From a virus: DNA of 64,000 nt. The stretch covers positions 32,001 through 96,000 of IMG/VR virus record IMGVR_UViG_3300044539_000111. The stretch is one strand, 5' to 3'. The stretch's first letter is position 1. Every line of letters starts with the position of its first letter. The translations under genes were made by a program, and so were the position numbers. Below, in pieces: positions 17,737 to 55,737 of this stretch. The notes below the pieces were generated by a model, which had not been told where the DNA came from, did not search any database, and worked only from the letters and a program-made list of their open reading frames with translations.

Positions 17737-18291
17737 ATGGAAAAAATGCAATATGAATTATTAAAAGAAATGGGTATCTACATTCAAAAAAGCAAAACTT
17801 TTTTATGGCCGTTGCTGAATATAAAAGTTCAGCCAATAGAAACCTATTTAAAATTTGGTGATGTTAATCACACCAAAGAATCAAGAATACTAATTGCTTT
17901 GTTTTACAATAAAGATGCAGATTATGTTAAGATAAAACCTGAAATAGAAAACTCAAAATTTCATGATTTTACTTTTACAGATGACGAATTTGACATTGTA
18001 ACATTTAACATGTATAGTTTAAAAGATGACTATGACAAAGTAGTTAGTGGTAGTTATTCAGAAATCTCAAAAGAATACAAACTGCTAATGTCAGTTATAG
18101 AAAAAAACAAAATAGTTTTAAAATGCTTAGAACCTGCTAGCAATTACAAAGAAATTGCTGGAATTTTAGGAGTGTATGAATCAGAACTAGAAGGAAAAGA
18201 ATTACTTTCTCCGCCTAGTCCTGATCAAGAAACTATATTTGTTACACCTTCAATTAAAAAACAAATAATTGAAGATTATTGTTTTAGTTAA
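17737..18291 (+). CDS. Hypothetical protein, last gene of the plus-strand module
   Basis: 184 aa: QKSKTFLWPLL...GSYSEIS...ELLSPP. Confidence 0.8.
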   Translation: MEKMQYELLKEMGIYIQKSKTFLWPLLNIKVQPIETYLKFGDVNHTKESRILIALFYNKDADYVKIKPEIENSKFHDFTFTDDEFDIVTFNMYSLKDDYDKVVSGSYSEISKEYKLLMSVIEKNKIVLKCLEPASNYKEIAGILGVYESELEGKELLSPPSPDQETIFVTPSIKKQIIEDYCFS

Positions 18292-21200
18292 AGAAATCTG
18301 AATTTTCTCTTTGAATAGTAGTAGGAGCATCAACTAAACTTCCAGATAAGCCCATAGATTTAAGCACAATATTTAATGCTTTATCTCTGCCTTTTTCTTG
18401 AAATTTGTATGGTCCTGCTGCTTTTTCATAGACATCCGGCTCATCAGTAAAATATGTTGCATACAGCGAGCTTGCTAAATCTTCTATTGTAGCTAAACCT
18501 CCACCAGTAAACAAAGGTGATTGTCCAGTTACAATATCTTTTGTTGTTGATAGAGCATTAGTTAAAAAGAATGTATCCTCCTCTTTCTTAAAGACCAAAA
18601 GCAAACGCAATGTCTGTAACTTTAAATAGTTTTCTGAGTGAAAGCGTTTGTTTGTACCTTTAATTGTTCTTGCATCAGAAATTAAAGGTAATTCAGGTAA
18701 GGATGTTGAATGTTTCAACTTTGAATAAATCCCGTCATCATTTGGATCCCAAGTAAAATCAATAAGTCCGTCATCATCATCATCAAAACCAATTGACATG
18801 GCTAACATATTAATGATCATTGAAATCATTTTTGCTAAAACTAACTGCATTGCTCCTTTTTTAGCTTGCCAACTATAGGCATCCAGTTGCCAAAATTTTC
18901 CTTTATTGCTTACAAGTTCATTTGCTAAAGCAACAATCCCTAAATAAGTTCCAAGCTCAGCCCTGCGCGTTGAATAATTTAATCGTCTTTGACCTCTTTT
19001 TCCTTTTTTAGTTCTTATCTGGTATCTATCTAATGCCATTCCAGGAAAAAACTTCATTAAAAAGAACGCAGCCTTTCCCAACAAACTTCTATAAACCTCT
19101 GGTTCATTAAACTCATTTGCTATACCAAGTGATTTTTGTAAAAAAGATTGATGTTCATTCATCAAATCTTGTATTTTTTTTCCAAATTTAATGTTACCGT
19201 CCGCATCATAAGTGATTGCCATATCAGCAGGAACACCTGCTACTGTTTGTATTTTTCCATCAACCAATTCTATAGCTTCATCAAGTGATGTTTTCTTACC
19301 GTTTATCATAAAAGAATTATGCTCAAGAATTGCTAGAAATTGATGAACAGGTACAGATTCACTTAAATATTTTCTATCCGCATAGAAAAAACTTCCGCCA
19401 AACAAAGATTGCGCTACAGTTTTAGAACCTCTTGCACCAATTTCCTTTTTTAAGTTGCCGGGTATAGCATTTAAAATATCTAATAATTGCAATCTTGCAC
19501 TTACATTCTTATTAGAATACTGCATAGCAATTAATTCCCCCATAACAGAAGCAGACTTTCCTCTTGTTAAAGCAACATCCTTCATATTATAAACCGATCC
19601 TTCTGTTGCTTTTTTGTACATCATGGATTTACCTCCAACATAATTTCGCACAGACTTAACCGGATCTAATGCAAATGATGTAAAAGACATCCATCTTTGT
19701 AACCCACCAATAACTCTTGCGGTAAACATTGTTCCACCAGAAGCATCAGTGCCACCACTTACAAATCCTGTAATTGTAACACCTTTAAAATTTTTGTCTA
19801 TTATTTCTCTAATGTTTTTAATTCTTCTGCTTTGAGTAGAATCTTGTTTTTCTAACAACTCTGAGTCTTTAAGCATTTTGTCCACTACTGTTTTTGCAGG
19901 ATTAGTGTACATGTTTGTCATTGCATTTTCAAAAACATTTGCAAATGAATTTACTTTACGCATGCCTTTAAAATGCTCAATAGAATAAGAATGATCCATC
20001 ATTTTATCAATGATGTTAGTGGACACATCTGAAATATCAAGTTTATAACTACCACCTATTGGTCTGGTCAATGTTTTGTAAGAAGCTGTTTGTTGGTCAT
20101 TTGTTCTAATGCCATATTCAAAATCATCTTCTGCACCACGCCACGTTTCAGCAACCCTGTTCCATTTTCTTTGAAAATAATTTTTGTCATACTCCTCAAT
20201 ATCGCCTTTTCTATAACGCGGATAACTCAAATACATTTTTTGAGAAGCATCCAATCCTTTTTGATTATCCAGATGTTTATTCTTTAAATAATCTAACAGG
20301 TTCCATAAATTCCTTTGATTAGAAAACATCTTTTTGTATGTACCATTTACATACTTTGCATTTGGATCTGTTTCATCTAAGTTTTTAGGAAGCCAGTTCC
20401 CTCTGTTATCAACTGTAGCAATAACAAGGTCCCCGTTGTTGTCAACATAATCCCTTTCAATCTTAGCTGTTTCAAATTCTTGTTTTACTTTTCTGCGGTA
20501 GTATGCTCTAGTTGGAATACGCGGAACACCATTTAATTCAATGTATCCATTTGGAGAAAATTCAGCAGGAATTTTTGTACCTAATACACTTTTAGTTTCA
20601 TAATCTGAAATTTCACTAGGCATTGTAAATTGCCAAGCTGCCGTTGGTCGGTTGCGAGTAAACTCTCCAACAAAATGACCATCAACTTTATCAAATTCAT
20701 TTACTGATTCAGTATAATGATTTCTATCAAACCATTCTTTAAACTCAGGGCTAGTAGCAGATAATGCATCTGTAAATTTAGTATCCTTAATTGCTTCAAA
20801 AATATCTTGAGATGTTGGAAATTCACCATCAACAAAATCATAAGCTTTAAATGCATCTTCAAATATATTAGCAAACGCATCATTTGTTTCTACAAATGCT
20901 TTTAAGTTTGAAATATACTGCTGTGTCAATCCGGAAAGCTTAGAACCGTTAAGTTCTTTATCAATCTCTCTTACTCTGTCCAGTGTATCTTTATCTATTC
21001 CTAGATTAGCTAAACGCTTTTGTAAATCTATCCAAAAATTATTGTAGAAATCTTGGTCATTGTCATATTCAAACTCACCATTTTCTAAATAGTATTCTTC
21101 AATTCTTCTAAAGTTACGCATCTCTTGAGGACTATAACCTTTGATATTCAACCACTGTTCTTTCAAATTAGAAATAGTTTGTTGAATGTCTTTTATTTTT

Positions 21201-24200
21201 GCTTGAGCAGTTGGTGTTAAATCATTACCATTGTACTGATTAAAATTATCTTTAGATGGCTTTAGGATTCCGTAAATCTGCTCATACATTGGAGTGACAT
21301 CAATGAATGAATTATTAATTCTAGTAATTGGTTCTACTAAAAAACTTCTTTCCTCAATTAATGCTGCTCTGTTAATGTAATAGTTTTCACTTACAGCAAT
21401 CGTAGTGTTGTGCTTAATCCATTCTTCCATTACTGCATTATATGCATCGCTTCCTGGATGTTTACCTTTAGAAACTAACTCATCATGCAAAAGTTCAAGA
21501 GCTAACTCAAAAGCATTTTCTTTTTCTTCCCACTCATAAAATTCAGAAATCTCATTCCTATAGCCGGTAAGTATTTCAGCAATTTCTCTTGATATACCTG
21601 TTTTTTCTTCACCTGTTTTAAAATCATAAATATTGTGAAGCAATTGGTATTCATTCCAGAGTTCATTTAATGCATCAACTTTCCCAAAGTTTGTAGGATT
21701 GACATCAGCATTTTCAGAAATAACTCGCATCCTATCAAATATATCATCCAGTGCAGCTTTAGCTAATTTACCTGAATCAGTTTTAAAATATCTAGCAGCA
21801 ACTTGATAGAACTCATCCGTGTAATCACGGTTCATATACTTAGTGTCAAAATCTTCTAATGCTTCTTTAGCTTTTTCAAATTCTGCCTTTAAAGGATCTC
21901 TAGATTTTGCATCTTTATTTAAATTAAATTTTTGTCTAGCAAACTTAACAGCATCAAGAAGAAGCTGTCTATCATATTCATAGTTGTGGAAGTTACTCAA
22001 AAACTGCCACTCTAAAAATTCTTCTGATTCACCTTTGTTATTTGTTTTAAATGAACGGTTTATTTGACCAACTTCTTTTCCAAGTTTACCTTCACCTAAA
22101 AAATGTGTATCATAACCCGCAGCTTTTAAAAGTGGCTGTAAGTTGTTTAATAATTCACCTCTTCTTGCATTAGCATTACCATCAATGGTATTAAAAGTCT
22201 TCATTAAAAAAGAATAGAATCCGCCAACAATTTGGTCCTGGTTATTCATAAATGACTCAAACAAACCATTCCATTTATGTGAATCACCTAATCTCCCCTC
22301 TGCTTTTGCTCTAAGCGCATCTTTAGAAATTACATGTGAATTAAATGTTGCTAATTTAAGTTCTTGCAACTTTATCATTTCATCTCTAGTAAGACTTGCT
22401 TCAGGTTTATTTTTTAACCTGTTGTACTCAACCATGTCTGTTGGAGTCAAACCGTAATATTCTGCATGTAATTTATTGTACGCAGCCATAGAACCGACTT
22501 TCTTTAATGAATCCATTTGATCAAGATAATCTTTTTTAATTGGAGTCATTAATTCATTTAAGTGATCATACAAAACATCAATCACTGAATCTATTTGTAA
22601 ACTATCAGAAATTCTTTTACCTGCATCTAATTTTTCTTGTAGTTCATCTAATGCATCATAAATAGGGTTGACTTGTTGACCAGTTAAAGGATCAGTTACT
22701 AATGAATAGGTTGTATATTCAGATTTCCAATCTGTTATTTTAGCTAACCACTCTTCATTGTATTGCATGATTGCAAACAATTGGTCAAATTCATTGTTTT
22801 CTTTTACGCCAGACGCAGCCAGTGCTTTTAATTTATTATTAAGCAAATCCACAACTTCATCTACAGTTGAAATAACTTGAACAAAAGAATTAATCTTGTT
22901 GTTAAAGCTGATAATGTCTGCATCAATAGCAGTATTACCTGTAATGTTTAAAGCATCTAATGGGATAACGATATTTCTTGAACCAAATGTAGCTAGTCCT
23001 TCAAGAATCATTTGAGCTTGATTTAAAAGACCTTCTCTATTTTCATCAGCCAATCCTACTTCAATAGTTTTAAAGATGTCATTCTCTGCTTTAAAGTTTG
23101 ACAGTTGCAGTTTAACTACATCATGAAACTTGTTCATCAACTCCTGAGTTTTCTTTGCAGAACCATCTTTGATTTGTTGTTTAAGTAATTCATAATCTGT
23201 CTTAAACATTACCATCAAATCCTTGTCTAAAAACTCTGTGTCCAAAATAAATTCCTCCCCGTAGTTGATCATTTTTACCAGATCAGCCAATGTAGTTTTA
23301 GAATTAAGTTTTGACACATCTATTTTCTTTCCAAATACTTTTCTAAGAAACTGTTTGATTTGAAAGAATAGGTTTTGAATAAAACTTTTAGGTGCTACAT
23401 CTTCATTCTCATTGATTGCTTCTAAAGATGTAACAATTGCTTCCTCCATATAAGCAGCCGTACCCGGAGTTAAATCCGGATCTAAATTAAGATCAGCTAT
23501 AATACGTTGACCAAGTTCTGTAGCAGCAAGGTCATCAAATAATTTTTGAAATAGCTCAGGATTTTGTTTACTCATAGATTTTACAATCGGGTGAGCAAAC
23601 TCATGAAACACATCTGACGCAGTTAAATTACCTGCAACAATGTAAACCTTACCTGCTTGATAAAAAGCTTTTCTGTAAGACTGATTAGGAAACTTTTCTT
23701 CTAGTTCTTTTTGTGTAATTACTTCATAAGGAACATTCAATTGTTTAGATAATTTTTCAGCAACATCTAACGCTTTTGCTTTGTTTTCTACTTCAACAAC
23801 TTGTTCAAACTGATTTATAAATTCATCAATGCTTGGCATTTGCAAATCCATAGATTCATTTACCGTGTCTTGAAAATCTTGTTCTTCTTCCTCAAGTCTT
23901 TTAAATAACTTTTCTAGAACAACATTAGCAGGCCTAACAACTTTATTTGTTTCAAAATAGTCACGCCATGCTTCTTTTTCACCAATAGCATTTGCTAACT
24001 CATTAAATTTTTGTTGATCAACGGGATCTTCAATTTTATTATAGGCTGGGTTATCTATTAGCAAGCTTAATTCTTTGTCAGAAATAAGTGCAACCTCAGA
24101 TGGATTTTTAAAACCCCAGTCTTCAGTTTGTCCAATAAGCTCTTGCTCTTTTGTTATTGGAGTGCTTTCTTTAAATTCAAGAGTATCATCATACATTTTG

Positions 24201-24310
24201 TATGTTTGCTCTTGCATGAGTTTATCATACATGATTTCAGCCAATAAAAAATTTGGCTCCTGCTCAAGAATTTTCTTAAATTCTGGTGAATTTGGATTTA
24301 CACAGCTCAT
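18284..24310 (-). CDS. Giant virion/ejection protein (2008 aa) with a zincin-like HExxH domain and a C-terminal hydrophobic helix
   Basis: VFHEFAHP...MEEAIV; hydrophobic AMQLVLAKMISMIINMLAMSIG; directly downstream of the RNAP gene, as in crAss-like phages. Confidence 0.8.
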   Translation of the reverse strand: MSCVNPNSPEFKKILEQEPNFLLAEIMYDKLMQEQTYKMYDDTLEFKESTPITKEQELIGQTEDWGFKNPSEVALISDKELSLLIDNPAYNKIEDPVDQQKFNELANAIGEKEAWRDYFETNKVVRPANVVLEKLFKRLEEEEQDFQDTVNESMDLQMPSIDEFINQFEQVVEVENKAKALDVAEKLSKQLNVPYEVITQKELEEKFPNQSYRKAFYQAGKVYIVAGNLTASDVFHEFAHPIVKSMSKQNPELFQKLFDDLAATELGQRIIADLNLDPDLTPGTAAYMEEAIVTSLEAINENEDVAPKSFIQNLFFQIKQFLRKVFGKKIDVSKLNSKTTLADLVKMINYGEEFILDTEFLDKDLMVMFKTDYELLKQQIKDGSAKKTQELMNKFHDVVKLQLSNFKAENDIFKTIEVGLADENREGLLNQAQMILEGLATFGSRNIVIPLDALNITGNTAIDADIISFNNKINSFVQVISTVDEVVDLLNNKLKALAASGVKENNEFDQLFAIMQYNEEWLAKITDWKSEYTTYSLVTDPLTGQQVNPIYDALDELQEKLDAGKRISDSLQIDSVIDVLYDHLNELMTPIKKDYLDQMDSLKKVGSMAAYNKLHAEYYGLTPTDMVEYNRLKNKPEASLTRDEMIKLQELKLATFNSHVISKDALRAKAEGRLGDSHKWNGLFESFMNNQDQIVGGFYSFLMKTFNTIDGNANARRGELLNNLQPLLKAAGYDTHFLGEGKLGKEVGQINRSFKTNNKGESEEFLEWQFLSNFHNYEYDRQLLLDAVKFARQKFNLNKDAKSRDPLKAEFEKAKEALEDFDTKYMNRDYTDEFYQVAARYFKTDSGKLAKAALDDIFDRMRVISENADVNPTNFGKVDALNELWNEYQLLHNIYDFKTGEEKTGISREIAEILTGYRNEISEFYEWEEKENAFELALELLHDELVSKGKHPGSDAYNAVMEEWIKHNTTIAVSENYYINRAALIEERSFLVEPITRINNSFIDVTPMYEQIYGILKPSKDNFNQYNGNDLTPTAQAKIKDIQQTISNLKEQWLNIKGYSPQEMRNFRRIEEYYLENGEFEYDNDQDFYNNFWIDLQKRLANLGIDKDTLDRVREIDKELNGSKLSGLTQQYISNLKAFVETNDAFANIFEDAFKAYDFVDGEFPTSQDIFEAIKDTKFTDALSATSPEFKEWFDRNHYTESVNEFDKVDGHFVGEFTRNRPTAAWQFTMPSEISDYETKSVLGTKIPAEFSPNGYIELNGVPRIPTRAYYRRKVKQEFETAKIERDYVDNNGDLVIATVDNRGNWLPKNLDETDPNAKYVNGTYKKMFSNQRNLWNLLDYLKNKHLDNQKGLDASQKMYLSYPRYRKGDIEEYDKNYFQRKWNRVAETWRGAEDDFEYGIRTNDQQTASYKTLTRPIGGSYKLDISDVSTNIIDKMMDHSYSIEHFKGMRKVNSFANVFENAMTNMYTNPAKTVVDKMLKDSELLEKQDSTQSRRIKNIREIIDKNFKGVTITGFVSGGTDASGGTMFTARVIGGLQRWMSFTSFALDPVKSVRNYVGGKSMMYKKATEGSVYNMKDVALTRGKSASVMGELIAMQYSNKNVSARLQLLDILNAIPGNLKKEIGARGSKTVAQSLFGGSFFYADRKYLSESVPVHQFLAILEHNSFMINGKKTSLDEAIELVDGKIQTVAGVPADMAITYDADGNIKFGKKIQDLMNEHQSFLQKSLGIANEFNEPEVYRSLLGKAAFFLMKFFPGMALDRYQIRTKKGKRGQRRLNYSTRRAELGTYLGIVALANELVSNKGKFWQLDAYSWQAKKGAMQLVLAKMISMIINMLAMSIGFDDDDDGLIDFTWDPNDDGIYSKLKHSTSLPELPLISDARTIKGTNKRFHSENYLKLQTLRLLLVFKKEEDTFFLTNALSTTKDIVTGQSPLFTGGGLATIEDLASSLYATYFTDEPDVYEKAAGPYKFQEKGRDKALNIVLKSMGLSGSLVDAPTTIQRENSDFFN

Positions 24311-27300
24311 TTATAACATGCTTTAAGTTTCTCAATAATTATTTTTTGCACAAGATCATTTCCTTTTGCAAGTGCTTCTTCAATGTATTGTTTTGCATCT
24401 GCTACAGTATGTTCTTTTTGAAGACTTACTGTTAGCTTTTTAGCAAAGTTAACTAATATAGTTTGTTTTTGTTCGGCAGTAAACGGCAGTGTATTAAAAG
24501 TCAAAGAACCCGCTTGTTTTAACTGAGTAATATTATCTTCTAATCTTTTAAGTTCTTCCTGTAAAAATTTATATGTTTCAGGAGCTCTTGTGGGTAATTC
24601 AGCTAAACCAACACCCATTTGTGGAATTATAAGTTTAGAATATTTTCCAGTGTTCCATTCTGCAATTGCTTTGTTTATGTCTTCAGTAATTATTTTTTTA
24701 TTTTCTTGTAACTCTTTATCTGATTTGTATGCTTCTTCGCCTCTTGCAGGTAATTTTTTAGTAGATATACCAATTGCATTTGGTTCATCGCGCATTTCTT
24801 TTGCTTGACCACCTAATCCTTTTCTTATATCATTATCTCCAAATAAATACAAAGTTGCAGGATTTGCTTTAAGTTCACTTCTTAAAATAATTTTATCTGT
24901 TTTTTCAACAACGCCTGTAGATAATTGAGTAGTTGGAGCAGACCAATCATGTTGATTAATTAAATAATCTAATGCTGTAGCATGTGTAGCATAACCTTTT
25001 TCTTGATAATAAAGAATTGAAGATCCTTTAATTTTTCCTGAAGCAATGTCATTAATTATTGCTTGTCTATATTCTTCAGTTGCATTTGCATTACCTAAAT
25101 TTTCTCCAGTTGTCATCCAATGAATAAATTTCATAGTAGAAATTTTACCTGCTTCATCTCTTGACGTTTGTTCATCTTGCCAATCAAATGGATTACCCAA
25201 TGTTAAACCATCTTTGTAGTTTTGCAAAAATGATTTTTTAGAATTACCTCTAAAAGCAATAATCATTGTTTTTAGTTTACCGGTTTTTCTATTCATTTTA
25301 TTATCAAACAAACTGCGCGCTTCAGGTACAATATCATTCCAAAAATTCTTACCTGTGTATGTGGTATTTACATCTAAATCAGATGGTAGAACAACATTTT
25401 CTGATTTAGTTTTATCACCAAGCTGCTCATAAATATTTTGAGCTGCTGATTTTGTTTTAACCGGAACAGGTGTTTGATTAAGTTTAGCACTAGATGTAAG
25501 TACAGCTTGTCTATATTCCATTAAAGTTTCTTCTACTAATGAATCAAACAAAGTTTTACCAACAACAATTCTACCTGATGAAAATTTAAGTTCATTGATG
25601 AATTTAACTCTGAAGCCCACATAATTATTTTTTTTGTAGCTGGTATCTAAATCAGCAATAATTGAGCGTAATTGTTCTTTAACTATCTCTTTTCCATTGT
25701 TGATTAATTCAGACTGAGTAAGCTTTGTAAACCACTCAGGAGTCTTTCTATTTATATCATCATAAAGTATATCCAATAGTTCATTAAACACATTAGAGTT
25801 TGCTGTTCTTGTATCTGTTAGTTTTGGATCATACATTGGATCAGTTACACTTTCAAATGCTTTAGCTGAAATCATTTCATTGTATGTACCTAGCTCTGAA
25901 TAACGTATTACTTTTTTAAATCCAAGACCTTCCAAATGTTTTACAGCCATGTCATCTATACCGGAAGCTGTACCTACAAAGAATGAAGACACACCTGCTT
26001 CTACAGCCTTATCTATTAATGGCTTATGATAAGCATCAAAAGTTTTTTCAACCGCTGTTACAAACTCTTCTTTCTTTTTACCTAAGTATGCATTTTGAGT
26101 AATAGTACTACCAAACACCCAAACTTTATCTGTAGGAACAAATTCAGTTTTTGCTGACTTAGGTTTGGCTAAGGTTCCAGGATGAAAAGATTCTAAAGCT
26201 GCGGCATACGCTGCAGATGATGACTCATACTTAGAATTAAGTGGAGTTGTAGCTTTACCAATTGCTTTAGTGGCAGAGTTTGCCATCGCCTCATCTTTAA
26301 TTGCAAATTTTTCTTTGAAGACATTTGACTGAGCAACTGATAAAAATCCTTTTTTAGCATTTTTAGTTTTGTATCTTAAACTTGGTAAGTCACCTGAATT
26401 ATCAATACCTAAAATAAGCAAAGCCTTATCTAATTCTTTTTGACTTTTTCCTTCCGGTGCAATAAATTTCTGATCTCTAATTACCCATTCCATATTCTGA
26501 ATTGATTCAGCAAATGCTAATGGAGTCATTGATTCATCATTGTAGAAGTACTCAAGTTTTAATTCCTTTTGTTCTGCTGTTATAGCTTTAGCTAAAGGAA
26601 TTTTTGTAATGTTACTTGCTCTTACTTTTGATTCTTTGAGCTTAATATCTTTTGAGAATTTTAGTTTGTCAACAAGATAGTTAGCACCACGAACTTTCAT
26701 ACGCATTCCAGTGCCAACAATCATTCCTTGGTACAAGTTTTTAAACTGATCAATAATTTGTGCATCAATTTCTTTTCTGTTTTCTCTTTGGTCAAAACTT
26801 TTTTGCAATTCATCCAGCACTTGATAAATATACGGAAGACCAATTTGATTTGTTATTGCTTGTTCAAAGTAACTCTGATCAATAATTGGGAGCATGGAAT
26901 ACTTTGAAGCACGGTTAACACCAGACTGCATTATTGCAAGGTGATTTAATTTGTTGATGAAATTTTTAACTTCAGGATGTGGACTGTTTTTAAGTTCTTG
27001 AATATTTTCTCTATAGATAGAAGCCATTTGTGGATCTTTCACCTGCGGAAAATAAATGTTGTTCTTTTTAGCAGATTCATTAAAGTCATATTTTACATCT
27101 CTGAATAAAGCATAGTTTTCTAATTCAGGATAAAGAGCTTTTAAGTTTTGAACAACAGATGCAGCACCAGTAGAAATATCAAACATAGCACTTACATTCC
27201 CTGTGTTATATAAAGCAGCTCTTCCCAATATAATTAGTTTTCCTTGCTCAAAACCTTGATTCATAAATGTTCTCTTTGGTTGATCAAACACTTTGAATTT

Positions 27301-36648: not shown

Positions 36649-36653
36649 GCTAG

Positions 36654-39600
36654 TTATGTTTTACATTTTGTTGTTTCTTCTTTCAAACTGGAGATGAGTT
36701 TATCTTCTGATAATGAATTAGCCTCTCCCATATAGGTAGTAAAGTTATTTAAAATATCAGTATAAGCACTCTTAATATAGTCAAATTCTTTGACTTTCAC
36801 AATAGAATCAATGTTTAAATTTGCAACATCAGTATTCACTGGAACTTCTTTTTCAATGCCATTTAAAAATGCATCTATTTCAAAATTCAAATACTCAGAC
36901 AAGTTATTTACATCTTGCAACACTACCATTCTTTTTTGATACCCCGCAATTCTATAAACTTTACCATTAATTTGAACAGACTTTCCTCTGTAGTGACCTT
37001 CAGATATTTTAGCTCTAATTATTGCCTCATTCCTATTTTCAGTTTTTTCACCAAAAGCAAATTTGCCATTAGTTACTAATCTAAATACAGCAGCTGCAAA
37101 AGCAATATCTGTTTTCTTATCCTTATTTAAATTATCCCAAGCATATTCAATTGCATTTGGTAAAGCGCCTCGCGTTGGAATAGAAGCCAAAGAATCCAAT
37201 TCATCTAAGTATAAATCAACTTCTGTTTTTTCAGGTTTTTCTGTATCCTTATTTTCAAATATAGATTCTGTGTCAGTTTCTTCTTCAACCTCTTCAACGT
37301 CTTCTTCTTCTGAACCAACTTCTTTTAACTCGGATCCTGCATCTGATAAATCATTTTCATCACCTGTAAACTCATCATTTAGTAATTCAAATTCTTGAGA
37401 ATTGTAATACTCATCTAATAATTTTGCTTCAGATTCTAATGCTTCTTGACCTTCTTCAGTTTGTAAAAACTTTAAGTGAGCAAGATATTCAGCTGATTCA
37501 TCTGCAGACATTCCTTTTTCTTCTAGCTCTTGCAAAAACAATCTTTCATCTGCTTCTTCATTACTGATTCCTCTATTTTGATCTTCAGCTTTAGATTGAT
37601 CGCTTTGTACTTGATCTACTAAATTTCTAACAGCATTGGATAGACTTGAATACTTCATTAAAAAAGCTTCAAGGGCATTAGCCGCCATAGCACCATCTAT
37701 TCCAGTTGTAGTTACATCAAAATTTTGTGATTCTAAAATAGATACAGATGCACTATCAAAACTTGCTTTTGAATCCGCAGCACTTTCACTTGCTATTCCT
37801 TTCCAGTCTTTTACTTCAGACGCATTTTCTCCAAATACTTGTTCTAAAGCACTAGGCTTAATTTTTCCCCCCTGTAAGAAATACATAGCAATAGCTACTT
37901 CTAAATCAAAAGCAGAAGGGCTTCCTGTGTTTACTTCATAAGAACCCAAAATCTTTTTACTTGAACCATACGCTCCAGGAGGGGTTATTCTTTTTGTAGA
38001 TTTTACTTTTTGAATAACATACATGGAAGACATAGTAGCATTTTTACCAGAACGCGTAGCTCTAATTCTAAATTTGCTGTCAGCATTGTATAAAGCTAAG
38101 TTGATTTTATTAACCACTTCAGGATACAACTTTTTTTCTTTTTCTAACTTTCTAAATAAAGAATAAAGTTTTAAATGTGTAGTCTTAGATCCTCTTTCAA
38201 ACCCAAAATCTTTTGTGTTAAAAAACTTAATGTCTGTAATTCTACTTTTTAGAATGTCATTAACTGCATCTAAAAATTCTTGTCTAGGTAAAGTAAATAT
38301 CTCAGGATGATATGTAGTAATAAACTTGACCATTCCATTTTGTGGAATACGCATTTTTATTTCCTTGCCGTAGCTAGTTTTAAATGGTATAACAGGCAAC
38401 ATCAAGAAATCTAGATTACCTTTAATCTGTTTATTGACACGGGCTTCCTCTTTCTGTTGTTCTATATCTGCAAGCTTCTGTTCTTTCTGAGCTTGTACCA
38501 ATTTTTTATTGTTGATAAATGCTACAATGTCATTAACTGTAAAATCAATTAAGGCGTTGCTTTTATCTTTCAGCTTGGCTACAAGTTGGCTAATTTCTTT
38601 AGGAGAAAGGATTGAATAATCATAGTCCTTTAAAACACTTTTTAAAATGTCTTCATCACTAACCTTTGGTCTAGCTGCTCTTTTTTGTTTTTTAGCTTGA
38701 CGAGCAGCTATTCTATTTTGTTGCTGTTGTTGTTTTAATTTCAACTTAGCATCTTCAACTTTTTGATTATTTAACTTTAGTTCTTTAGCTCCTAACTCAG
38801 TATCTTGTTGATCTAATCTTAATTTAGAAAATGCAGAAATAACAGAAATGTATTTAGGATTAGACTTCATTTCAGCCTTAATTACAATAACATCTGCATC
38901 ATTTAATTTATTCAATGCCTTACCAAACAAATCAGCTAATTCATTTCTTAAACTTTGAGGAATATCCATCCAAGGAGTTTCACTAGAAATTATTTCATTT
39001 CCATTGTAGTCAAAAGCTGGAACATACTGTGCATCATTATTTAAAATTTCAGCCTCTTCACCAATTTCAGATAAACCAGCTTGTAAATTATTTAGTTGTT
39101 GATACAAGTCATTGATGTCAATAGCTAAAAGATTCTGTTTGTTTATTGCTTTTCTTTTTTGAATCAATGATAATTTACCTGTGTTTATTTCTTCAGTGAC
39201 TTTATCATACTCAACTTCTAGTTTTGCAATTTCATTTTTTACTGAATCAAGATCATCTAAAATTTCAGTCCTAGATTGATAAGATGTTTCAGCTTGAATT
39301 TCATTTTCTGGTTCTTGTTCTTCTGCTGGGATTTCTTCTTCAACTACAGTTTCTTCTTCAATGTCCCTTGAGATTTGTTCAGTAACCCAGTTTTCCGGTT
39401 CAGTAAACAAGTTTGGTTCCATTATTTTTAGCTCTCTATCTATGTCAGCAAATGTTACACTTCCATATTTATTAAATTTAGGATCTTGTCCCTTGTGAAA
39501 AGCTTTAACAAACCATTCTATTTCTTTGCCCTCATCATTTATAGCTTTTCCTATAGCTATTAATGGAACCCACTCACCGGCAGATGCCGCAGTTGAACCT

Positions 39601-42600
39601 TTTCCAATAGATTTGTACATCAAGAATTTAACTTTCTTAGTGCCTTGCTGAACAGTTTCTTCTCCTTCTTCAACAATGTCGTCATCTTCTTCATTGAGTT
39701 GGTCTTGAAGAGCGTTTCTTTGTTTAAGAACATCTGCAATTTCTGCATCAATTTTTGTAGTATCTTGATCGCTTTGTCCAATTGATTTTTGAATTGCATC
39801 TTTAATCTCAGCTAAGACTCTTTCTGTTTCTGCAACTGTAGTATTGCCAGGATATTTAATATCCGCTACAAGTTTTTCAAAAACAGCTTCATTAAAATTT
39901 TCTGGAACTTTAACATTTACTTTAGTAGAACCGCCAGATCTACCAAACATATCTCTACCTTCAATGATTACACCAAGTACTCCATTATTAACATAGTAAT
40001 TAGTTTTACCATATCTTTTTAATTTGTTAAGTTCTTGGGTTTCATCACCCATTTTTATAGAAGCGTCATCACTAATGATTCTTTCATTACCATTTTTTGT
40101 AGTTGATTCAACATTTAATTTTAAATCAGCTTTAGATCCACTCGGTTGTGATAAACTTTGTGTTTTCTTGTCATTAATAAGTTTTTCAGCTGCATCATAA
40201 GATACTTCATTTTCTACTTCATTCTCACTAAATAAAAAATACGGATTAGAATACTCAATAGTTTTTAAATCCAGTGTTCTAGTAACTGACTTACCACTAA
40301 CATCAGTAAATGTAAATGAGTTATTGTTAAAGCTTGTAATAGTCCCAAGCTTCTCTACAACAGGATCTGATGTATTATTTCTATTTATATAGTAAGCAAA
40401 TTGTCCAACAACAGGTTTAACATTATTCAACATGCGCAGGTACTGATACAACGGCATGTTTTTTCCAGGAAACTTTTTCTTAGAGAATGATAAAACATCT
40501 CTGGCATTTTCAAATTCTTTTAATGCTGCGGTTGAATCATCTTGAGCTGCCGCACTTGGTCTAGCTTTAACAGAAACATTAAGAGATGTGTCAACAGCAG
40601 ACAATACAAATTTACCATTTATAATATTTGGTAAAATTGCATTCATCTTTGTTCTTGCTGCCCTAGTTGCATTATCTATTTCTTCTTGTGTAGCGTTTTC
40701 AGAAATCTTTACAGATGTTGTAACCCATGCATCTCTTCCAGGTTGTCCATTAGACGTACCTTCAGATAACCTATTTCCATTAGCATCTACTTTAGAATAA
40801 AGCACAACAAATCTATCATTCTCAGTTGCACTATTTGTTGCACCCTTAGTAATTAATATACCTTGTGCTGTTGATTGTTGACCAATTAAACCTCTAATGT
40901 CCCCAACGCCTTTATCCTTAGATTCTGATGCCTCCGTATATCCTCTTTCAATACCACCAACATGTACTTCAAATGTTTGATCTTTCGCTACTGGTGCAGA
41001 AACTGGCGCAGGAGCACTAGCTGCAATCTTTTTTTGATTACTTAACTGTTGAATTTTTGTATCTAAATCTGCAATTTCTTTTTGCAATTCAGTTACTCGC
41101 GGATTAGCTTTTTTGTTTTGTAATGCTTTCTTTACAAACACAGGAATTTCAGCTGTAATATCAATGATTAATCTGCCATCAATTTGAGCACGGATATTTC
41201 CATAAACCCAATTGGTAATTCTTGCATCATCTAATTCTTGACCAAGATCAACAAGTCTTTCAGTCCATTCAGCAATAACTAAATTATTTCCAAAAACAAT
41301 TTCAGGATGTAAAAAATCACCAAAAATATCTGGACGCTCACTAGCATTATCTAATACAAGCAAATCTCCTCCTTTATTTACAGTCTGTTCTTCAATAACG
41401 GTTCTTACACTTTTGACAGTCTTCTTTCTTGTTCGTGGTTTAAGTGTAGCTTCAGTTGATTGAGCTTGTTTCCCTGCTTCAATTATTTTACCAAGATCAA
41501 CTTTAACATTGCTGTTTACTGAATACTCAGCCAAATCTGTAATGGTAGTTTTTCTTGGATTAAATCTTCCAATGTCTGACTTACTAATATTAAGAAACTC
41601 AGCAACTTTAGCCAACATTCTTTTAATGAACTGGCCTATCTTTTTGAATAAACCTGGTTCTTTCTTTTCACTTAATTTATTACTTACACTTAAATCATAA
41701 GCTCTACCAACAAGTTCATGTTCAAATTGTCTTGAACCAATTTTGTCTTCAGTACCATAATTTTTTTCAACATAATCAATAATCTCTTGACTGCCTTTTG
41801 CTTCAGCTACAAGTTGTTTATAAAACTCAGGATTAGTTTTTTCAAGATTAATTAAAAATGGATGCAAGAAAATCTCATGGTATAAAGTATTTTCTTTTAC
41901 AGCATCTGCAACAATGTAGGCTGTATTTGTTTTCTCATCATAGAATCCAGCAACAGTTTCTTCTTCTGCTTGAAAGAAAATATTTTTAACCATCTCAATT
42001 CCATCACCAATATTGTCTGCATTATTTACTAACCAGTCAACCATTTCTCCTACTTTACCATTAGTTTGATAAACAGAAAGTTCTTTTAGATTAGCAATTA
42101 ACTCAGATAATGAAGTTGAATTATTATAAATGGACATAAGAAGTTCTTTTAAAGAAACTTCATTTACTCCTTTCTGAAGATTAAAGCCCATGTATAATGG
42201 ATCATAAAGCAAGTCATTTAGAATTGTAGAAAACTTTTGATAGAACGGATCTTGAAGACTGTTTAAGATTTTGTCTGCTTCTTCTTGTGAAGCCAAAACT
42301 TTTACATTTACATTCCATCTCTGACCTAGCTCAGTAGCCAACTTATTTAATTCCTCTACTTGTTCTTTTGACGCAGCCGCTCTTTGTTGTTTTACTTCTT
42401 TTGATTCTTCATTACTTTCAGATATGTTGTCTATAATGGAATCATCTAAAGCTTTAGCAGCAATGTTAATTACTCGGTTGGCTAGTTTTTTATCAATGTC
42501 TTCTTGTACAATGACTCCAATTCCCGTACTTAAAGTTGACCAAAGAGATTTACTTGTAGGTTGTACTGTATCTTCTACAGTTGCTAAAAATTTTTGGAAT

Positions 42601-45600
42601 TGCAAATCATTCATGGCTTCTGTCATGAAAATGTTTACATCTTCAAATACTGACAACTCATCTACATTAGCTCTTGGATTTGCGCTGGCAAATGCTTTTT
42701 TAGCTTGCTCCATTGCATTACGAGCAGCTAAATATAAATCATCTTTTGTTTTTAATTTTTCTGTAATTGCATGTTGAGTAAGCCCAGTAACAATAAGATT
42801 TTCAAATGACATTACTGAATTAGTATAATCACTTCCAGCAAATCGTATATCTAACTCTAAGATACCATCATCAGTGAGTTTAACCGGCAATGTGTTATCA
42901 CTAACAAATTTAATTGTAACATCTTGCTCACCCAACTTAGTAAGAATTTCTCTATCTAGTTTAGTCAAATACTTATTTTCAGCCGCCATTAATTTAGCTA
43001 AAAGTCTTTGTCCTTCAGGAGATGACAACTTAATTGGCTCATTTAATTTGACTTTGTACTGTCTTAAAATACCAGCAATAGTTCTTTTATCAGACTTTAG
43101 TTTGCGCCCTTGTTTATTTAATTGAGTTCTGTCATTGGTAATGGTTTTACCTTTGAGTTTTTTAATGTAAGAGTTAATAATTTTTTGAGCAGCCTCATAC
43201 TGTTCTGGAGTTGCTAGTTCGTTTGTGGTGATGTTAAAAATTTCTTGAGGCATTAATCCTTTATTCAACAAATCATCTAGTTCCTGTAAATCAAAAAACA
43301 AATTATTGTTGTACAAATCATTAAGCATGTCATCAGAAACTGCTTTTTTATCAAACTCATATAATGCAGAAAGAATATGATCTTCTTTATTTTCTTCAAG
43401 TCTTTTTAGCATTTCTTCTTGACCTTCAATAAAAACAGAAGAACCCGCAGGATTTAAAATAGTATCAATTAACTCTTGATTAAACCTACCTTCTTCAGCA
43501 AGTGCTAAGTAATCAAAAACTTTATTAAACTGCTGTCTGTTAAACTGAAGTTGAGATGTAGTATTAATTAATTTGTTTTTTCCAGACACCTCAAGAATAC
43601 CGTGATAAGCATCAAATAATTCATCAAATGTATCTGATTCAGAAATAGAACCTTTTTCATTTTTTTGTTCAGCTTTATAAGCACTTAATTTTGCTTGATA
43701 ATTTTCATAAGCTTTTAACTTAGCTCTTGCCTGTGCTTGATTTTGAACAGCAGCATCGCCATAAGCCGATAACTTTGAATTAGTTTCTACTTCAGTTTTT
43801 AATAATTGAATTTGTTGGTTTAAGTCACCCTCATCTAAAAGAGCATTAACTTCCAATGTAGAAAGAGGATTATCACTATTAATCTCAGCTCTAATTTCTT
43901 TTTGTCTATTTGCTCTATCCGCAATTTTAGCATGACTAAATAATAATTCTTTCTTTAAGTTTTCAACTGACCTGTATTTAAAATACTTATTCAAATACTC
44001 TGGATCATTAACATCCAAAGATTTTAAATCAATTGGATTATTAATAGTGTTTTGAATTTCATTGTAAACACCTCTTAGCTTTTTAATATTTTCTGCTTGA
44101 TGCTGAAGCTTCTTTTGATACTGACCTTTGGTTTCTTCAGTAATATCTGTTCTGCTAAATATTTCATTTAATTGCTGGGCGTTTAAATTTTTACCCATGT
44201 ACTCTAAATGATCAGCAAATTGATTCTCCATTCCTGATTCAAGCAAAGTATGCACACCATTAACAAAAGATTCATGCTGTTTATTTTTCATGGTTTTTTG
44301 ATCACCAGATTCACCAGCAGTTAATATTTGTTCTTGTAGTTCACTTTGTGAATAAATGCCTTTTGACCAAGCATCAACAAAGTTTTTACTGTTGTTAAAG
44401 AACTCAGTAAGAACTTTTGCTTTTTCTTTTCTTTTAGATTCAACATCTACTTTTTGTTGTTTGTATTTATCTCTATCAGAAAAATAGTCATAGGTTTTAT
44501 TTACACCACCATTAAATAAATAATTTTGAGTTTGCTGTGATGCAAATCCAACAGGTGATGCAAATACACCCATTAATGCACCAGAAAGAAATGTACTTAA
44601 ACCTTCACCACTCTTTTGTTTATCAATGGCTTTTGTAACATCATTTTCTAAAAAGCTCATCATCCCACCACGAACTTGTAAACCTTTTACATTTCTTTCA
44701 CGGTAAGCTTTAACTGATTCAGAAATTACATCCTGTCCAAGCTCTTGGAATCCTTCCATTGAACCGGATACCACACTTTTTAATGCGCCTTGCCAAGTTA
44801 TTTCTCCAATTTTTTTTCTACCATAATTCCAAACATTTTTCTTGAGAACATCAACAGCTACTTTGCCTCCTTCTTTTTGAACAACTTTAAATAAATCACC
44901 AGCATTAGCAAAAAATTTATTTGTACCACGCATAGATTTAAGCATGTTATCAAATGTAATTGCATTTGTAGCATAAATTAAAGCAAAGTTTGAAGTATAA
45001 ACATTGTCCCGTACTTTTTGAGATTCACCTTCAATTTTGTTGGCCATTTCTTTTGATAATGGCTTGCCTGCCATATCTGGATTACTTTTATAATAATCAT
45101 CATACATTTTTTCTCTAAACTCTTTAGCCGCCATATCGGCTTCTAATTTAGATTCACTGTGGGACATTGTGATTTTTCTAGCATCTCTTACAATAGATCC
45201 TACACCTAATGCTGTCTGTTTTAATCCATTTATATCTTTTAATTTATCAGCTGTAAAAATAAAATCCATTGTGTTTTCCAATGGATTTAAAGCTTTACCA
45301 AAACCTTTTACACTAGCTCCGGCTTTACCCATAAAACCAGTTGCCGTTTTTACATCTTGAAGTTTATTTACAAACTTCAACATATTACCAGCTTGCTTTA
45401 ATCTTGATACACCCTGTACTAACAAAGATCCTCCAGCAGCAACAGTTGCCGGTGCAGCAGCACCTCCACTTAATGCAGTAACACCAGCTAATGCTAATTC
45501 TTCAGCAGCAATACCGCCAATGATACCAATAGTATATCCAGAAGATAACATTGTATTAGACCAAAAACCAGCATTGCCACCTCTTGATGAAGAAAACTTA

Positions 45601-46046
45601 CTCATTGTATCTTCAAAATCAAGATAACTTCCTGAGTCAGCAAATGCGCCTAAGCCAATTGTATCTTGAAATCCAATACCTGCTAATTTCCACATGCCGT
45701 CCCAAGCTCTACCTACATCAGCGGACCAGTGAGTATTATCATCATATAGTACATCCATTCCGGATTTTTTACCTGGAATACCGCCTGCTTTAAATGGATC
45801 AAATCCTAGTTTACCATAAGTTTCAGAACCATAAGTTGCATACTTTGCAAGATTAGCCTGCTTAGCAGAAAAATCTTTAGCCTTACCCATATTATAAACA
45901 CTTACTAATTTAGGTAGTGCTTTTTCTAAATGTTTATCAGCTAACTGTTTAAACTTTACATCATCTGCATCCAGTTTTGGTTTTGGTTTTTGTGCATCAT
46001 CATTAAAATCCTTTTCTGATATTGTAATTGTCTTTAACTCGGCCAT
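36654..46046 (-). CDS. Giant polyvalent ejection protein (3130 aa) with N-terminal membrane-like helices and zincin-like domains
   Basis: Gly/Ala-rich hydrophobic segments near the N-terminus, AGFYD...LYHEIFLHP...EHELV, coiled coils; directly upstream of the RNAP gene. Confidence 0.8.
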   Translation of the reverse strand: MAELKTITISEKDFNDDAQKPKPKLDADDVKFKQLADKHLEKALPKLVSVYNMGKAKDFSAKQANLAKYATYGSETYGKLGFDPFKAGGIPGKKSGMDVLYDDNTHWSADVGRAWDGMWKLAGIGFQDTIGLGAFADSGSYLDFEDTMSKFSSSRGGNAGFWSNTMLSSGYTIGIIGGIAAEELALAGVTALSGGAAAPATVAAGGSLLVQGVSRLKQAGNMLKFVNKLQDVKTATGFMGKAGASVKGFGKALNPLENTMDFIFTADKLKDINGLKQTALGVGSIVRDARKITMSHSESKLEADMAAKEFREKMYDDYYKSNPDMAGKPLSKEMANKIEGESQKVRDNVYTSNFALIYATNAITFDNMLKSMRGTNKFFANAGDLFKVVQKEGGKVAVDVLKKNVWNYGRKKIGEITWQGALKSVVSGSMEGFQELGQDVISESVKAYRERNVKGLQVRGGMMSFLENDVTKAIDKQKSGEGLSTFLSGALMGVFASPVGFASQQTQNYLFNGGVNKTYDYFSDRDKYKQQKVDVESKRKEKAKVLTEFFNNSKNFVDAWSKGIYSQSELQEQILTAGESGDQKTMKNKQHESFVNGVHTLLESGMENQFADHLEYMGKNLNAQQLNEIFSRTDITEETKGQYQKKLQHQAENIKKLRGVYNEIQNTINNPIDLKSLDVNDPEYLNKYFKYRSVENLKKELLFSHAKIADRANRQKEIRAEINSDNPLSTLEVNALLDEGDLNQQIQLLKTEVETNSKLSAYGDAAVQNQAQARAKLKAYENYQAKLSAYKAEQKNEKGSISESDTFDELFDAYHGILEVSGKNKLINTTSQLQFNRQQFNKVFDYLALAEEGRFNQELIDTILNPAGSSVFIEGQEEMLKRLEENKEDHILSALYEFDKKAVSDDMLNDLYNNNLFFDLQELDDLLNKGLMPQEIFNITTNELATPEQYEAAQKIINSYIKKLKGKTITNDRTQLNKQGRKLKSDKRTIAGILRQYKVKLNEPIKLSSPEGQRLLAKLMAAENKYLTKLDREILTKLGEQDVTIKFVSDNTLPVKLTDDGILELDIRFAGSDYTNSVMSFENLIVTGLTQHAITEKLKTKDDLYLAARNAMEQAKKAFASANPRANVDELSVFEDVNIFMTEAMNDLQFQKFLATVEDTVQPTSKSLWSTLSTGIGVIVQEDIDKKLANRVINIAAKALDDSIIDNISESNEESKEVKQQRAAASKEQVEELNKLATELGQRWNVNVKVLASQEEADKILNSLQDPFYQKFSTILNDLLYDPLYMGFNLQKGVNEVSLKELLMSIYNNSTSLSELIANLKELSVYQTNGKVGEMVDWLVNNADNIGDGIEMVKNIFFQAEEETVAGFYDEKTNTAYIVADAVKENTLYHEIFLHPFLINLEKTNPEFYKQLVAEAKGSQEIIDYVEKNYGTEDKIGSRQFEHELVGRAYDLSVSNKLSEKKEPGLFKKIGQFIKRMLAKVAEFLNISKSDIGRFNPRKTTITDLAEYSVNSNVKVDLGKIIEAGKQAQSTEATLKPRTRKKTVKSVRTVIEEQTVNKGGDLLVLDNASERPDIFGDFLHPEIVFGNNLVIAEWTERLVDLGQELDDARITNWVYGNIRAQIDGRLIIDITAEIPVFVKKALQNKKANPRVTELQKEIADLDTKIQQLSNQKKIAASAPAPVSAPVAKDQTFEVHVGGIERGYTEASESKDKGVGDIRGLIGQQSTAQGILITKGATNSATENDRFVVLYSKVDANGNRLSEGTSNGQPGRDAWVTTSVKISENATQEEIDNATRAARTKMNAILPNIINGKFVLSAVDTSLNVSVKARPSAAAQDDSTAALKEFENARDVLSFSKKKFPGKNMPLYQYLRMLNNVKPVVGQFAYYINRNNTSDPVVEKLGTITSFNNNSFTFTDVSGKSVTRTLDLKTIEYSNPYFLFSENEVENEVSYDAAEKLINDKKTQSLSQPSGSKADLKLNVESTTKNGNERIISDDASIKMGDETQELNKLKRYGKTNYYVNNGVLGVIIEGRDMFGRSGGSTKVNVKVPENFNEAVFEKLVADIKYPGNTTVAETERVLAEIKDAIQKSIGQSDQDTTKIDAEIADVLKQRNALQDQLNEEDDDIVEEGEETVQQGTKKVKFLMYKSIGKGSTAASAGEWVPLIAIGKAINDEGKEIEWFVKAFHKGQDPKFNKYGSVTFADIDRELKIMEPNLFTEPENWVTEQISRDIEEETVVEEEIPAEEQEPENEIQAETSYQSRTEILDDLDSVKNEIAKLEVEYDKVTEEINTGKLSLIQKRKAINKQNLLAIDINDLYQQLNNLQAGLSEIGEEAEILNNDAQYVPAFDYNGNEIISSETPWMDIPQSLRNELADLFGKALNKLNDADVIVIKAEMKSNPKYISVISAFSKLRLDQQDTELGAKELKLNNQKVEDAKLKLKQQQQQNRIAARQAKKQKRAARPKVSDEDILKSVLKDYDYSILSPKEISQLVAKLKDKSNALIDFTVNDIVAFINNKKLVQAQKEQKLADIEQQKEEARVNKQIKGNLDFLMLPVIPFKTSYGKEIKMRIPQNGMVKFITTYHPEIFTLPRQEFLDAVNDILKSRITDIKFFNTKDFGFERGSKTTHLKLYSLFRKLEKEKKLYPEVVNKINLALYNADSKFRIRATRSGKNATMSSMYVIQKVKSTKRITPPGAYGSSKKILGSYEVNTGSPSAFDLEVAIAMYFLQGGKIKPSALEQVFGENASEVKDWKGIASESAADSKASFDSASVSILESQNFDVTTTGIDGAMAANALEAFLMKYSSLSNAVRNLVDQVQSDQSKAEDQNRGISNEEADERLFLQELEEKGMSADESAEYLAHLKFLQTEEGQEALESEAKLLDEYYNSQEFELLNDEFTGDENDLSDAGSELKEVGSEEEDVEEVEEETDTESIFENKDTEKPEKTEVDLYLDELDSLASIPTRGALPNAIEYAWDNLNKDKKTDIAFAAAVFRLVTNGKFAFGEKTENRNEAIIRAKISEGHYRGKSVQINGKVYRIAGYQKRMVVLQDVNNLSEYLNFEIDAFLNGIEKEVPVNTDVANLNIDSIVKVKEFDYIKSAYTDILNNFTTYMGEANSLSEDKLISSLKEETTKCKT

Positions 46047-55600: not shown

Positions 55601-55737
55601 TGTACAAGTTGCATAATTTGTTGCATCTGTGGATCTTGACCACCTTGTTGTGGTTGACCTTGAGGTGCGCCTTGTTGCATTTGTTCTGGAGCCTGACCTG
55701 GTTGGCCTTGTGGCATTTGTGCTTGTGGATTTTCCAT
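52606..55737 (-). CDS. Low-complexity Gln/Met-rich putative cargo/scaffold protein with repeated xxGG motifs; start ATG 55737 or TTG 55743
   Basis: Q/M/P/G-rich N-terminus and about 10 [KRFMY]-[AYKE]-x-GG/NG motifs. Confidence 0.65.
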   Translation of the reverse strand: MENPQAQMPQGQPGQAPEQMQQGAPQGQPQQGGQDPQMQQIMQLVQQMMQQGAQPADAAAELLAKQVPPEMIMQVFVQMGMPEQDAQAAIEQAMQGGQQPQNPGEEQMEGQASNPQEEMAEQGAPAPDQGGQPSPAEEIQMKYGGRMPRRLRSYAEGGDNQEMQAVMQQVQEMMSQGADARQVMEQIQAAAQQGQISPEIATSVMEQLSGMQQATDPQGSDVAMTEGSQDPQALDPNVPAPDSAMGMAKFGGNLKKLMSRAYGGPAVAPGTDSKTYAQDRTSMFVGAVKNSAYKSTLDDEFPSLGGNQRAYGGDLPKALNGIEMGKDGKVTINPKAFKSEADYKAAVYDWNNDPANKDQTVTTEMFTANKWSQQPDKNASYKYDEATGTYIAQPAQEKTNQFQFAEGDVLGQDAQGSYVTRKDGTMQRVPAAQVPGASQSSYSQINPVAYQNPMNQGLYGNLFAGASPFARMMSGIGTNNMYDPRITGANLPGGMNANQFLGAVGANGLVPGMAGNVAGQNWRIGEAEKFKEGSIWKGNRRKGVRYQIDWGDAAAMNPAAPAGPQEGPANSITPINGVTQYAGYQDATGLNPAPGGTTLQTDMYGNQTAMAPKDWRTSNAQIPGAVSFNQPSAANVADQSLVAPGSTDVVNPASEVNQNDQNAIDVTKQTETGVKGIQDGKLVEQDYKDSKWDRKENRYNEKKDAALAQFDKEEAAREVARNAGTPAVDEGNVANQSALENQKSIEESMLKKEGEYKGIDENNPYIPYDTDRKDFRSDRAFYKETYPDLSRSERKDISKNFSLGNVPNYNGNIYESKQDIRNTRQEDRQANRAENKEARQAGKRYEYGGGVDPAALENAVALINRAFGGRIPRADNGINLGSEDTDGNKIPDYLQFENLPANQPSPFGNNGTIEESAGKKLDINWNQVGAAAGDMYMNAAGKVTNFANKMNAMNPERDKAKLSALNRPSNTYDTMKQGLYDQAGNFIPNDIGNQVLNPTDTMYNNQRQIFAYGGRVYEIGGEVDLADDEMEQLAAAGFKLSRV

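Follow-up and report, generated by a model that had tools for sequence, protein, structure and literature searches.

The giant-protein genes and their cysteines

The DNA analysed here, referred to below as the window, is a stretch of 64,000 nucleotides (nt; positions 32,001 to 96,000) of the IMG/VR virus record IMGVR_UViG_3300044539_000111, a 114.2-kb genome that is 96% complete. On its minus strand it carries three consecutive genes for giant proteins, termed A, B and C, which abut one another (one 5-nt gap, one ATGA overlap) and whose products have a summed mass of 1.044 MDa. Protein A (36654..46046; 3130 amino acids (aa), 350 kDa), the first member of this chain, is weakly similar to gp47 of the cultured crassvirus crAss001. 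Protein B (24307..36648; 4113 aa, 464 kDa), the middle member, is assigned by motifs and homology as a crAss-type virion RNA polymerase (RNAP) protein: it has a zincin-like HExxH motif (H676, E677, H680; 34609..34623) that is invariant in the family, the metal-binding motif of two-barrel RNAPs, DFDID (D2369, D2371, D2373; 29530..29544), invariant in 34 homologues, and, near its C-terminus, a DUF7831 domain (PF25176; 24556..24897). Protein C, the last member (open reading frame (ORF) 18284..24310; 2008 aa, 230 kDa), includes an invariant HEFxH zincin motif at residues 236–240 (H236, E237, H240; 23591–23605).

A script count over the three ORFs returned four cysteines in 9251 residues (0.043%). 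The single cysteine of A is C3128, the third residue from its C-terminus (...TKCKT; codon 36663..36665); B has exclusively C4 (MNIC...; codon 36637..36639) and C4111 (...KACYK; codon 24316..24318); and the single cysteine of C is C3 (MSC...; codon 24302..24304). The outer ends of the chain, that is the N-terminus of A and the C-terminus of C, have none. A preliminary description made from the letters alone had claimed just this arrangement, with one cysteine at each terminus facing a neighbour; the script agrees with it exactly, and the four codon positions that it named are all correct. In the 81 other ORFs of the same genome, 388 of 24,454 residues are cysteine (1.59%), and at a background of about 1.5% the probability of four or fewer in 9251 residues is approximately 3e-54. 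If four cysteines are taken as given, they would occupy the four facing 5-residue end windows, one in each, with a probability of approximately 2e-12. The pattern is thus far outside chance.

Conservation of the terminal cysteines in homologues

A homologue search of a collection of 5.8 billion proteins returned 106 sequences for B, 45 for C and 43 for A, in which the terminal cysteines were kept down to about 23–26% identity. About 90 of the 106 B homologues (down to ~26% identity) have a cysteine at position 3–5 plus another within the last six residues, and most of these are free of internal cysteine across 3300–5000 residues. The remainder are truncated calls or fusions of A with B, as judged by size and the missing N-terminal cysteine, with the exception of the two weakest matches, P0108 (no cysteine) and P0109 (20 cysteines), which belong to neither group and whose membership is doubtful. 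The only apparent exception that could be examined, P0090, has no C-terminal cysteine and stems from a gene that is interrupted; the intact twin of this gene, 100% identical to it, has both cysteines. All complete C homologues have a cysteine at position 3–5 and none near the C-terminus, and all complete A homologues have one at the last to third-last residue and none near the N-terminus.

In a 34-sequence alignment of B with a mean column identity of 19%, C4 and C4111 were invariant, equal in this respect to the residues of the HExxH and DxDxD motifs. Among 62 divergent C-type N-terminal domains (10% mean identity), Cys3 was the only invariant column. The residues flanking the junction cysteines are little conserved.

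Several further features of the family were noted. Two contigs, L097 (10001–22355) and L096 (10001–22354), are 100% identical over the matching region, with B interrupted in the former (3699 aa plus a 361-aa ORF) and intact in the latter (4117 aa); a frameshift or an error of assembly may account for the interruption. One subclade (P0035–P0050; loci L018 and L019) has a single internal cysteine near B residue 1790, and its C proteins also have one, which could represent a further inter-protein pair. The C-terminal parts of B-family proteins (P0006–P0100) carry variable domains, including a 2OG-Fe(II) oxygenase (PF13532), DUF1768/YbiA (PF08719), an AAA_33 kinase (PF13671) and a PIF1-type helicase (PF05970), with DUF7831 in the window; this variability suggests swappable modules of injected enzymes placed ahead of the C-terminal cysteine.

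Pairing of cysteines across gene junctions

Using the B alignment, 79 IMG/VR loci holding the whole block were fetched, and each junction between consecutive giant, cysteine-poor ORFs was scored for a cysteine within 12 residues of each facing end, duplicates being removed. Cysteine was present on both sides of 114 non-redundant junctions and on neither side of 23, with no discordant case; all 23 cysteine-less junctions are those of A with its neighbour protein of ~700–1100 aa. Fisher's test for this co-occurrence gave 1e-26, a value inflated by shared ancestry, since the statistic counts junctions, of which only the few fusions and splits are independent events. The 518,955 residues of these proteins contained 257 terminal and 25 internal cysteines, an internal frequency of 0.0048%. 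N-terminal cysteines occupied positions 3–6 exclusively, and C-terminal ones lay at −1 to −10 (−1 being the last residue), mostly at −1 to −3. Barring chains cut by a contig end, the first chain member never had an N-terminal cysteine and the last never had a C-terminal one.

Close spacing of the genes is not a constant feature of the paired junctions, since 11 of those with both cysteines have intergenic distances of 100–1747 nt. Gaps between B and C of up to 1.7 kb, presumably due to inserted genes, occur in L042, L060, L064, L069, L073, L074, L075, L080, L083 and L085, with the cysteine pair retained; in cr85_1, an HNH endonuclease adjoins the gene of the RNAP subunit. The A-type gene of crAss001, of cr85_1 and of IAS virus is encoded on the strand opposite to B and C, and its product still has the C-terminal cysteine. 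Taken together, these comparisons of sequence indicate that the terminal-cysteine pattern is a conserved rule of crAss-like phages.

Gene fusions and splits

Most weight is carried by loci in which the chain genes are fused or split, because each such change is an evolutionary event in its own right. In loci with A fused to B (L063, L070, L079, L086, L087, L090, L093 and, in Suoliviridae, cr118_1, cr50_1, cr115_1 and cr7_1), the fused protein has no N-terminal cysteine and retains the C-terminal one, and the C protein still has its N-terminal cysteine. Where B and C are fused (p-crAssphage gp44 and cr3_1), the fused protein has the N-terminal cysteine alone, and the protein upstream retains its C-terminal one. 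A fully fused ABC polyprotein, which is mentioned by Drobysheva et al., was found in none of the loci fetched. Splits show the converse. In L017, A is divided into A1 and A2, corresponding to the N- and C-terminal portions of the A protein that L019 encodes as one, and an additional cysteine pair lies at the new junction; in L044, B is divided into B1 and B2, again with an additional pair, and the end of B2 resembles that of the undivided B of L067, which has the two terminal cysteines only.

If the terminal cysteines join neighbouring proteins, as the preliminary description proposed, terminal-only cysteines are expected in orthologous genes, with the two facing ends of a junction gaining or losing them together and with loss in fused genes. 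The comparisons bear this out on each point: the terminal positions are conserved across A, B and C homologues, no junction is discordant, and the pair is absent at AB and BC fusions and present at extra splits.

Gut crassviruses hold more internal cysteines in their chain proteins. In a comparison of p-crAssphage (L010), cr7_1 (L011), IAS virus (L102) and cr273_1 (L103) with the window's IMG/VR relatives (L015–L093), there were 7 in p-crAssphage gp44 and 9–13 in the cr7_1 and cr273_1 proteins, against the low internal frequency given above for the relatives. A possible reason is that stray disulfides are selected against less strongly where oxygen is absent. The gp35 gene of cr273_1 also has 36 in-frame TAG codons, indicating recoding.

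Cultured crassviruses and the identity of the block

The same arrangement is found in two cultured crassviruses. In crAss001, gp47 (2341 aa) has its sole cysteine at −3 and gp49 (1349 aa) at position 5, and gp50 (2412 aa) has cysteines at 5, 1334 and 2404, the last being −9. In Cellulophaga phage phi14:2, the sole cysteine of g067 (1797 aa) is its last residue, that of g065 (1421 aa) is at position 3, and g066 (2180 aa), the RNAP whose structure has been solved, has just two, Cys 3 and Cys 2179 (−2). All three phi14:2 proteins are annotated as detected in virions by mass spectrometry (MS). The crAss001 cargo proteins are known from MS to be part of the virion; they are packed in the capsid and are thought to be extruded partly unfolded via the tail (PMC10172136), and it is estimated in the same study that several copies of each are packed.

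In tblastn and BLASTP searches, the region of B around the DFDID motif matched the proteins annotated as RNAP catalytic subunits in crAss001, p-crAssphage and phi14:2 (g066), and a zincin segment of crAss001 gp47 matched the N-terminal part of B. Upstream of the chain genes and on the same strand lie genes for a crassvirus muzzle protein (55800..60707; 24 cysteines; PF25731 crAss_MUZ, 66 bits against a cut-off of 27) and for crassvirus tail ring protein 1 (60710..61681; 3.1% cysteine; PF24228 CrAss_Ring_1, 58 bits against a cut-off of 27). Because of these neighbours, the RNAP matches, the zincin motifs and the weak gp47 similarity of A, the three genes are identified, at the level of sequence, as a crassvirus virion cargo block, the counterpart of crAss001 gp47/gp50/gp49 and phi14:2 g067/g066/g065; by homology, A, B and C would be packaged in the virion of the window phage. 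The block thus resembles those of crAss001 and phi14:2 in lying beside muzzle and ring genes, in its DFDxD RNAP motif and zincin motifs, and in the terminal-cysteine rule. However, its proteins are far larger than those of crAss001 (3130, 4113 and 2008 aa versus 2341, 2412 and 1349 aa) and only weakly similar to them, and the split points may differ, given the position of the gp47 match within B. A megablast search against a phage collection gave no match, searches of PHROGs and Pfam gave almost none for A, B and C apart from DUF7831, and phmmer against PDB sequences matched none of the three.

Four proteins of 598–1045 aa are encoded between the muzzle and ring genes and A, and two of the four have no cysteine at all. 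One of these two, a 754-aa protein encoded directly upstream of A (46056..48320, minus strand), has homologues in relatives that likewise have no cysteine. It lies outside the chain, because its junction with A has no cysteine on either side, and is probably another cargo protein. The other, a 1045-aa protein encoded between the muzzle and chain genes (52606..55743, minus strand), is probably also a cargo protein. An 812-aa protein (50165–52603, minus strand) has only four cysteines, in a CxxC...CxxC arrangement (523, 526, 540, 543), which looks like a zinc-ribbon-type site in an otherwise cysteine-free putative cargo protein. Convergent on the end of gene C is a 184-aa ORF (17737–18291, plus strand) ending ...EDYCFS, with a cysteine at −3; it has no family match or evident cysteine partner, and the resemblance may be a coincidence. 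The structural and tail genes adjoining the ring protein (window 62961–64000; genome 94961–103714) encode 2.5–6.7% cysteine and often open with CxxC-type runs (MGCSSC..., MGCKKC..., MCENC...), the opposite of the cysteine-free cargo genes; this richness fits the disulfide-stabilised tail seen in crAss001. No thioredoxin gene was found in the genome or among the small window ORFs scanned.

Structure predictions

In an AlphaFold2 (AF2) model of C residues 1–500 (predicted local distance difference test (pLDDT) score of 75), Cys3 lies in a short tail before the first helix, and matches of this N-terminal domain to the zincin-like fold are weak. The model of the last 300 residues of B has a well-folded DUF7831 domain followed by three terminal helices, the last of which carries C4111; the final 15 residues are predicted to be helical up to the cysteine, with a pLDDT of ~60. 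Prediction of a B–C complex (C 1–600 with B 3930–4113) gave a score of 0.22 (mark 0.32) and is evidence neither for nor against an interaction.

Counterparts in phage A4 and N4-like phages

A junction of this type has been seen in cyanopodophage A4 (Anabaena phage A-4L), where cryo-electron microscopy revealed a disulfide between gp27 Cys1715 and gp26 Cys5 in the virion, with the C-terminal helix of gp27 sitting in a cleft of gp26 (PNAS 2025, PMC12002296). The authors describe the bond as one stabilising contact in a pentameric pre-ejectosome ring; they state no rule and do not mention cysteine depletion. In the A-4L genome we found that Cys1715, the third residue from the C-terminus, is the single cysteine of gp27 (1717 aa) and that Cys5 is the single cysteine of gp26 (1114 aa), that the two genes are consecutive and on the same strand, and that the replication proteins have ~2% cysteine. 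The window shows the same signature: A has its sole cysteine near its C-terminus, C has its sole cysteine at position 3, and both systems consist of consecutive, otherwise cysteine-free proteins. However, A4 has one junction and no RNA polymerase, whereas the crassvirus chain has two to three links and includes the RNAP.

Searches for common ancestry were negative: BLASTP found no match between A4 gp27 or gp26 and crassvirus proteins, a profile of the 62 C-type N-terminal domains searched against PDB retrieved no A4 chain and only helical-protein noise, and a Foldseek search with the N-terminal domain of C as modelled by AF2 returned neither an A4 chain nor any hit at E<=0.001.

The N4-like phages (Schitoviridae) offer a second comparison. 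Like the crassviruses, they have a giant virion RNA polymerase that is ejected along with other proteins, and cysteine is strongly suppressed in these proteins (N4 gp50; DEV gp71, gp72 and gp73), which has been explained by the avoidance of disulfides during transit of the periplasm (PMC11445570). In N4-like phages, however, cysteine is fully absent, whereas the crassvirus chain keeps one cysteine per facing terminus under strong selection.

Proposed linkage and alternative explanations

The reading that we consider probable, from sequence comparison and the A4 analogy, is that head-to-tail links, most likely disulfides, join A, B and C into one 1.04-MDa thread for packaging and ejection. Its parts differ in strength: pairing of the cysteines across each junction is strongly supported by the comparative data, the disulfide chemistry of the pair is supported by analogy with A4, and the roles in packaging, ordering and release are what we infer from the two. 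In the virion, the C-terminal cysteine of A would bond with the N-terminal cysteine of B, and the C-terminal cysteine of B with the N-terminal cysteine of C, giving a linear, unbranched A-S-S-B-S-S-C thread that would be functionally equivalent to a single polyprotein where genes are fused, the disulfide substituting for the peptide bond present in the fused genes. Such a thread would fix 1:1:1 loading, and just one of its ends need engage the portal or tail; the near-linear geometry of a terminal disulfide would let it be drawn end-first through the narrow tail, and the reducing cytoplasm of the host would then open the links and free the parts. All other cysteines would have been purged because an internal disulfide would form a loop unable to pass the channel. 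That the cargo pairs are oxidised is likely given that the virion appears built to hold disulfides: in crAss001 virions, disulfides link subunits in the tail and in gp57 (PMC10172136), and in the window genome the tail genes immediately beyond the end of the window encode 3–6.7% cysteine.

A wider form of this proposal is a modular chaining code, in which the cysteine-tipped cargo proteins of crAss-like phages in general would be covalently joined in gene order into a linear 0.5–1 MDa thread that would act like a polyprotein in packaging and ejection and come apart by reduction in the host cytoplasm. Here splits, fusions and inserted modules (e.g. the 655-aa module of L044) would be tolerated because a disulfide can replace a peptide bond. 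We advance this extension tentatively, its prospects falling a little short of even.

The preliminary description had put forward the linkage and stated that nothing of the kind was known. The first part is partly supported, by the comparative tests of cysteine pairing, all of which were favourable, and by the A4 precedent. As to the second, no description of the terminal-cysteine rule in crassviruses was found in the literature searched, but it does not quite hold more widely, as cysteine suppression in N4-like phages (PMC11445570) and one terminal disulfide in A4 (PMC12002296) were already known.

Several points weigh against the linkage of A, B and C by disulfides. The evidence for a bond in crassviruses is indirect, and A4 is an analogy, not a homology, because no similarity in sequence or fold could be detected; a disulfide and a metal bridge cannot be told apart from sequence alone. 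The cytoplasm in which virions assemble is reducing and the gut habitat is anoxic, so oxidation would have to follow release. Two proteins depart from the rule: the C-proximal cysteine of cr273_1 gp35 (L103:6738–24122; ...EEHKAC) is 50 residues from the end and is followed by a 49-residue, low-complexity acidic tail, and p-crAssphage gp47 (L010:4700–7273, 857 aa) has a lone cysteine at −2 with no evident partner, the next protein, gp46, being cysteine-free. Fused polyproteins have been suggested to be cleaved (Drobysheva et al. 2021; preprint 10.1101/2020.03.07.982082) in which case those lineages would have no need of a tether. Finally, these cysteines are not mentioned in the crAss001 atlas (PMC10172136) or the phi14:2 preprint (10.1101/2020.03.07.982082), nor in a 2026 paper on N4.

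Among the alternatives, the one that survives best accepts the tether and gives it a role in co-packaging and stoichiometry alone: one member with a capsid-targeting signal would drag the others into the capsid, and the links would play no part in ejection. It draws on the same comparative evidence as the ejection thread, and the linked pair of A4 is indeed seen in a static pre-ejectosome ring. The end-to-end geometry and the purge of internal cysteines, on the other hand, fit passage through a narrow channel (PMC10172136, PMC11445570). The present data do not separate a packaging role of the tether from an ejection role, and we regard a purely packaging role as the less likely of the two, if a serious contender.

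Alternatively, the facing termini may dock non-covalently or share a metal ion held by the two cysteines and other ligands, with no disulfide, the pair simply belonging to a conserved interface through which members of the RNAP complex meet end to end. Co-occurrence across a junction needs two cysteines acting together, oxidised or not; the cytoplasm in which assembly occurs is reducing, and the predicted helicity of the last B helix up to its cysteine is as expected of a docking element. Nevertheless, the sole solved case of the signature, A4, is a disulfide, almost nothing else is conserved near the cysteines, where more conservation would usually be expected of a metal site or a large interface, and two thiolates alone make a poor metal site. 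We therefore judge docking or metal binding improbable.

It is more improbable still that each terminal cysteine bonds some other partner, whether a second copy of the same protein in a homodimer or a capsid, portal or tail protein. The packing of several copies of each cargo protein (PMC10172136) and the lone C-terminal cysteine of p-crAssphage gp47 speak for such partners, but these would leave unexplained the cysteine-less outer ends, the equal numbers of facing C- and N-terminal cysteines (114 to 0) and the gain and loss of pairs with splits and fusions.

That the cysteines are neutral leftovers or by-products of nucleotide signals at the junctions (start/stop context, translational coupling) has next to no probability: the window genes do abut, but the cysteines are invariant while surrounding residues and codon spacing vary, they are absent at the equally tight junction of the 754-aa protein with A, and a nucleotide-level cause is excluded because they are kept with genes on opposite strands or spaced 100–1747 nt apart.

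Three further candidates were dropped. Split inteins or splicing of the native-chemical-ligation type do not fit, there being no intein-sized modules and the cysteines lying 1–10 residues from the ends; lipidation or CaaX-type signals would have the wrong spacing, and there is no signal peptide; and read-through into one polyprotein would leave the conserved cysteines unexplained.

Implications

Crassviruses belong to the most numerous viruses in the human gut and are common in the sea. How they package roughly 1 MDa of protein, an RNAP included, and inject it is an open question; the 2026 N4 paper explicitly calls such packing and injection one. A conserved tether, if true, would account for the loading of three to four giant proteins in equal copy numbers, for the way in which these locate the tail channel and traverse it in a set order, and for their lack of other cysteines. 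It would also make a general principle of protein ejection out of what is so far one structural finding in cyanophage A4, and the terminal-cysteine signature would provide a simple way to recognise chained cargo proteins in metagenomes.

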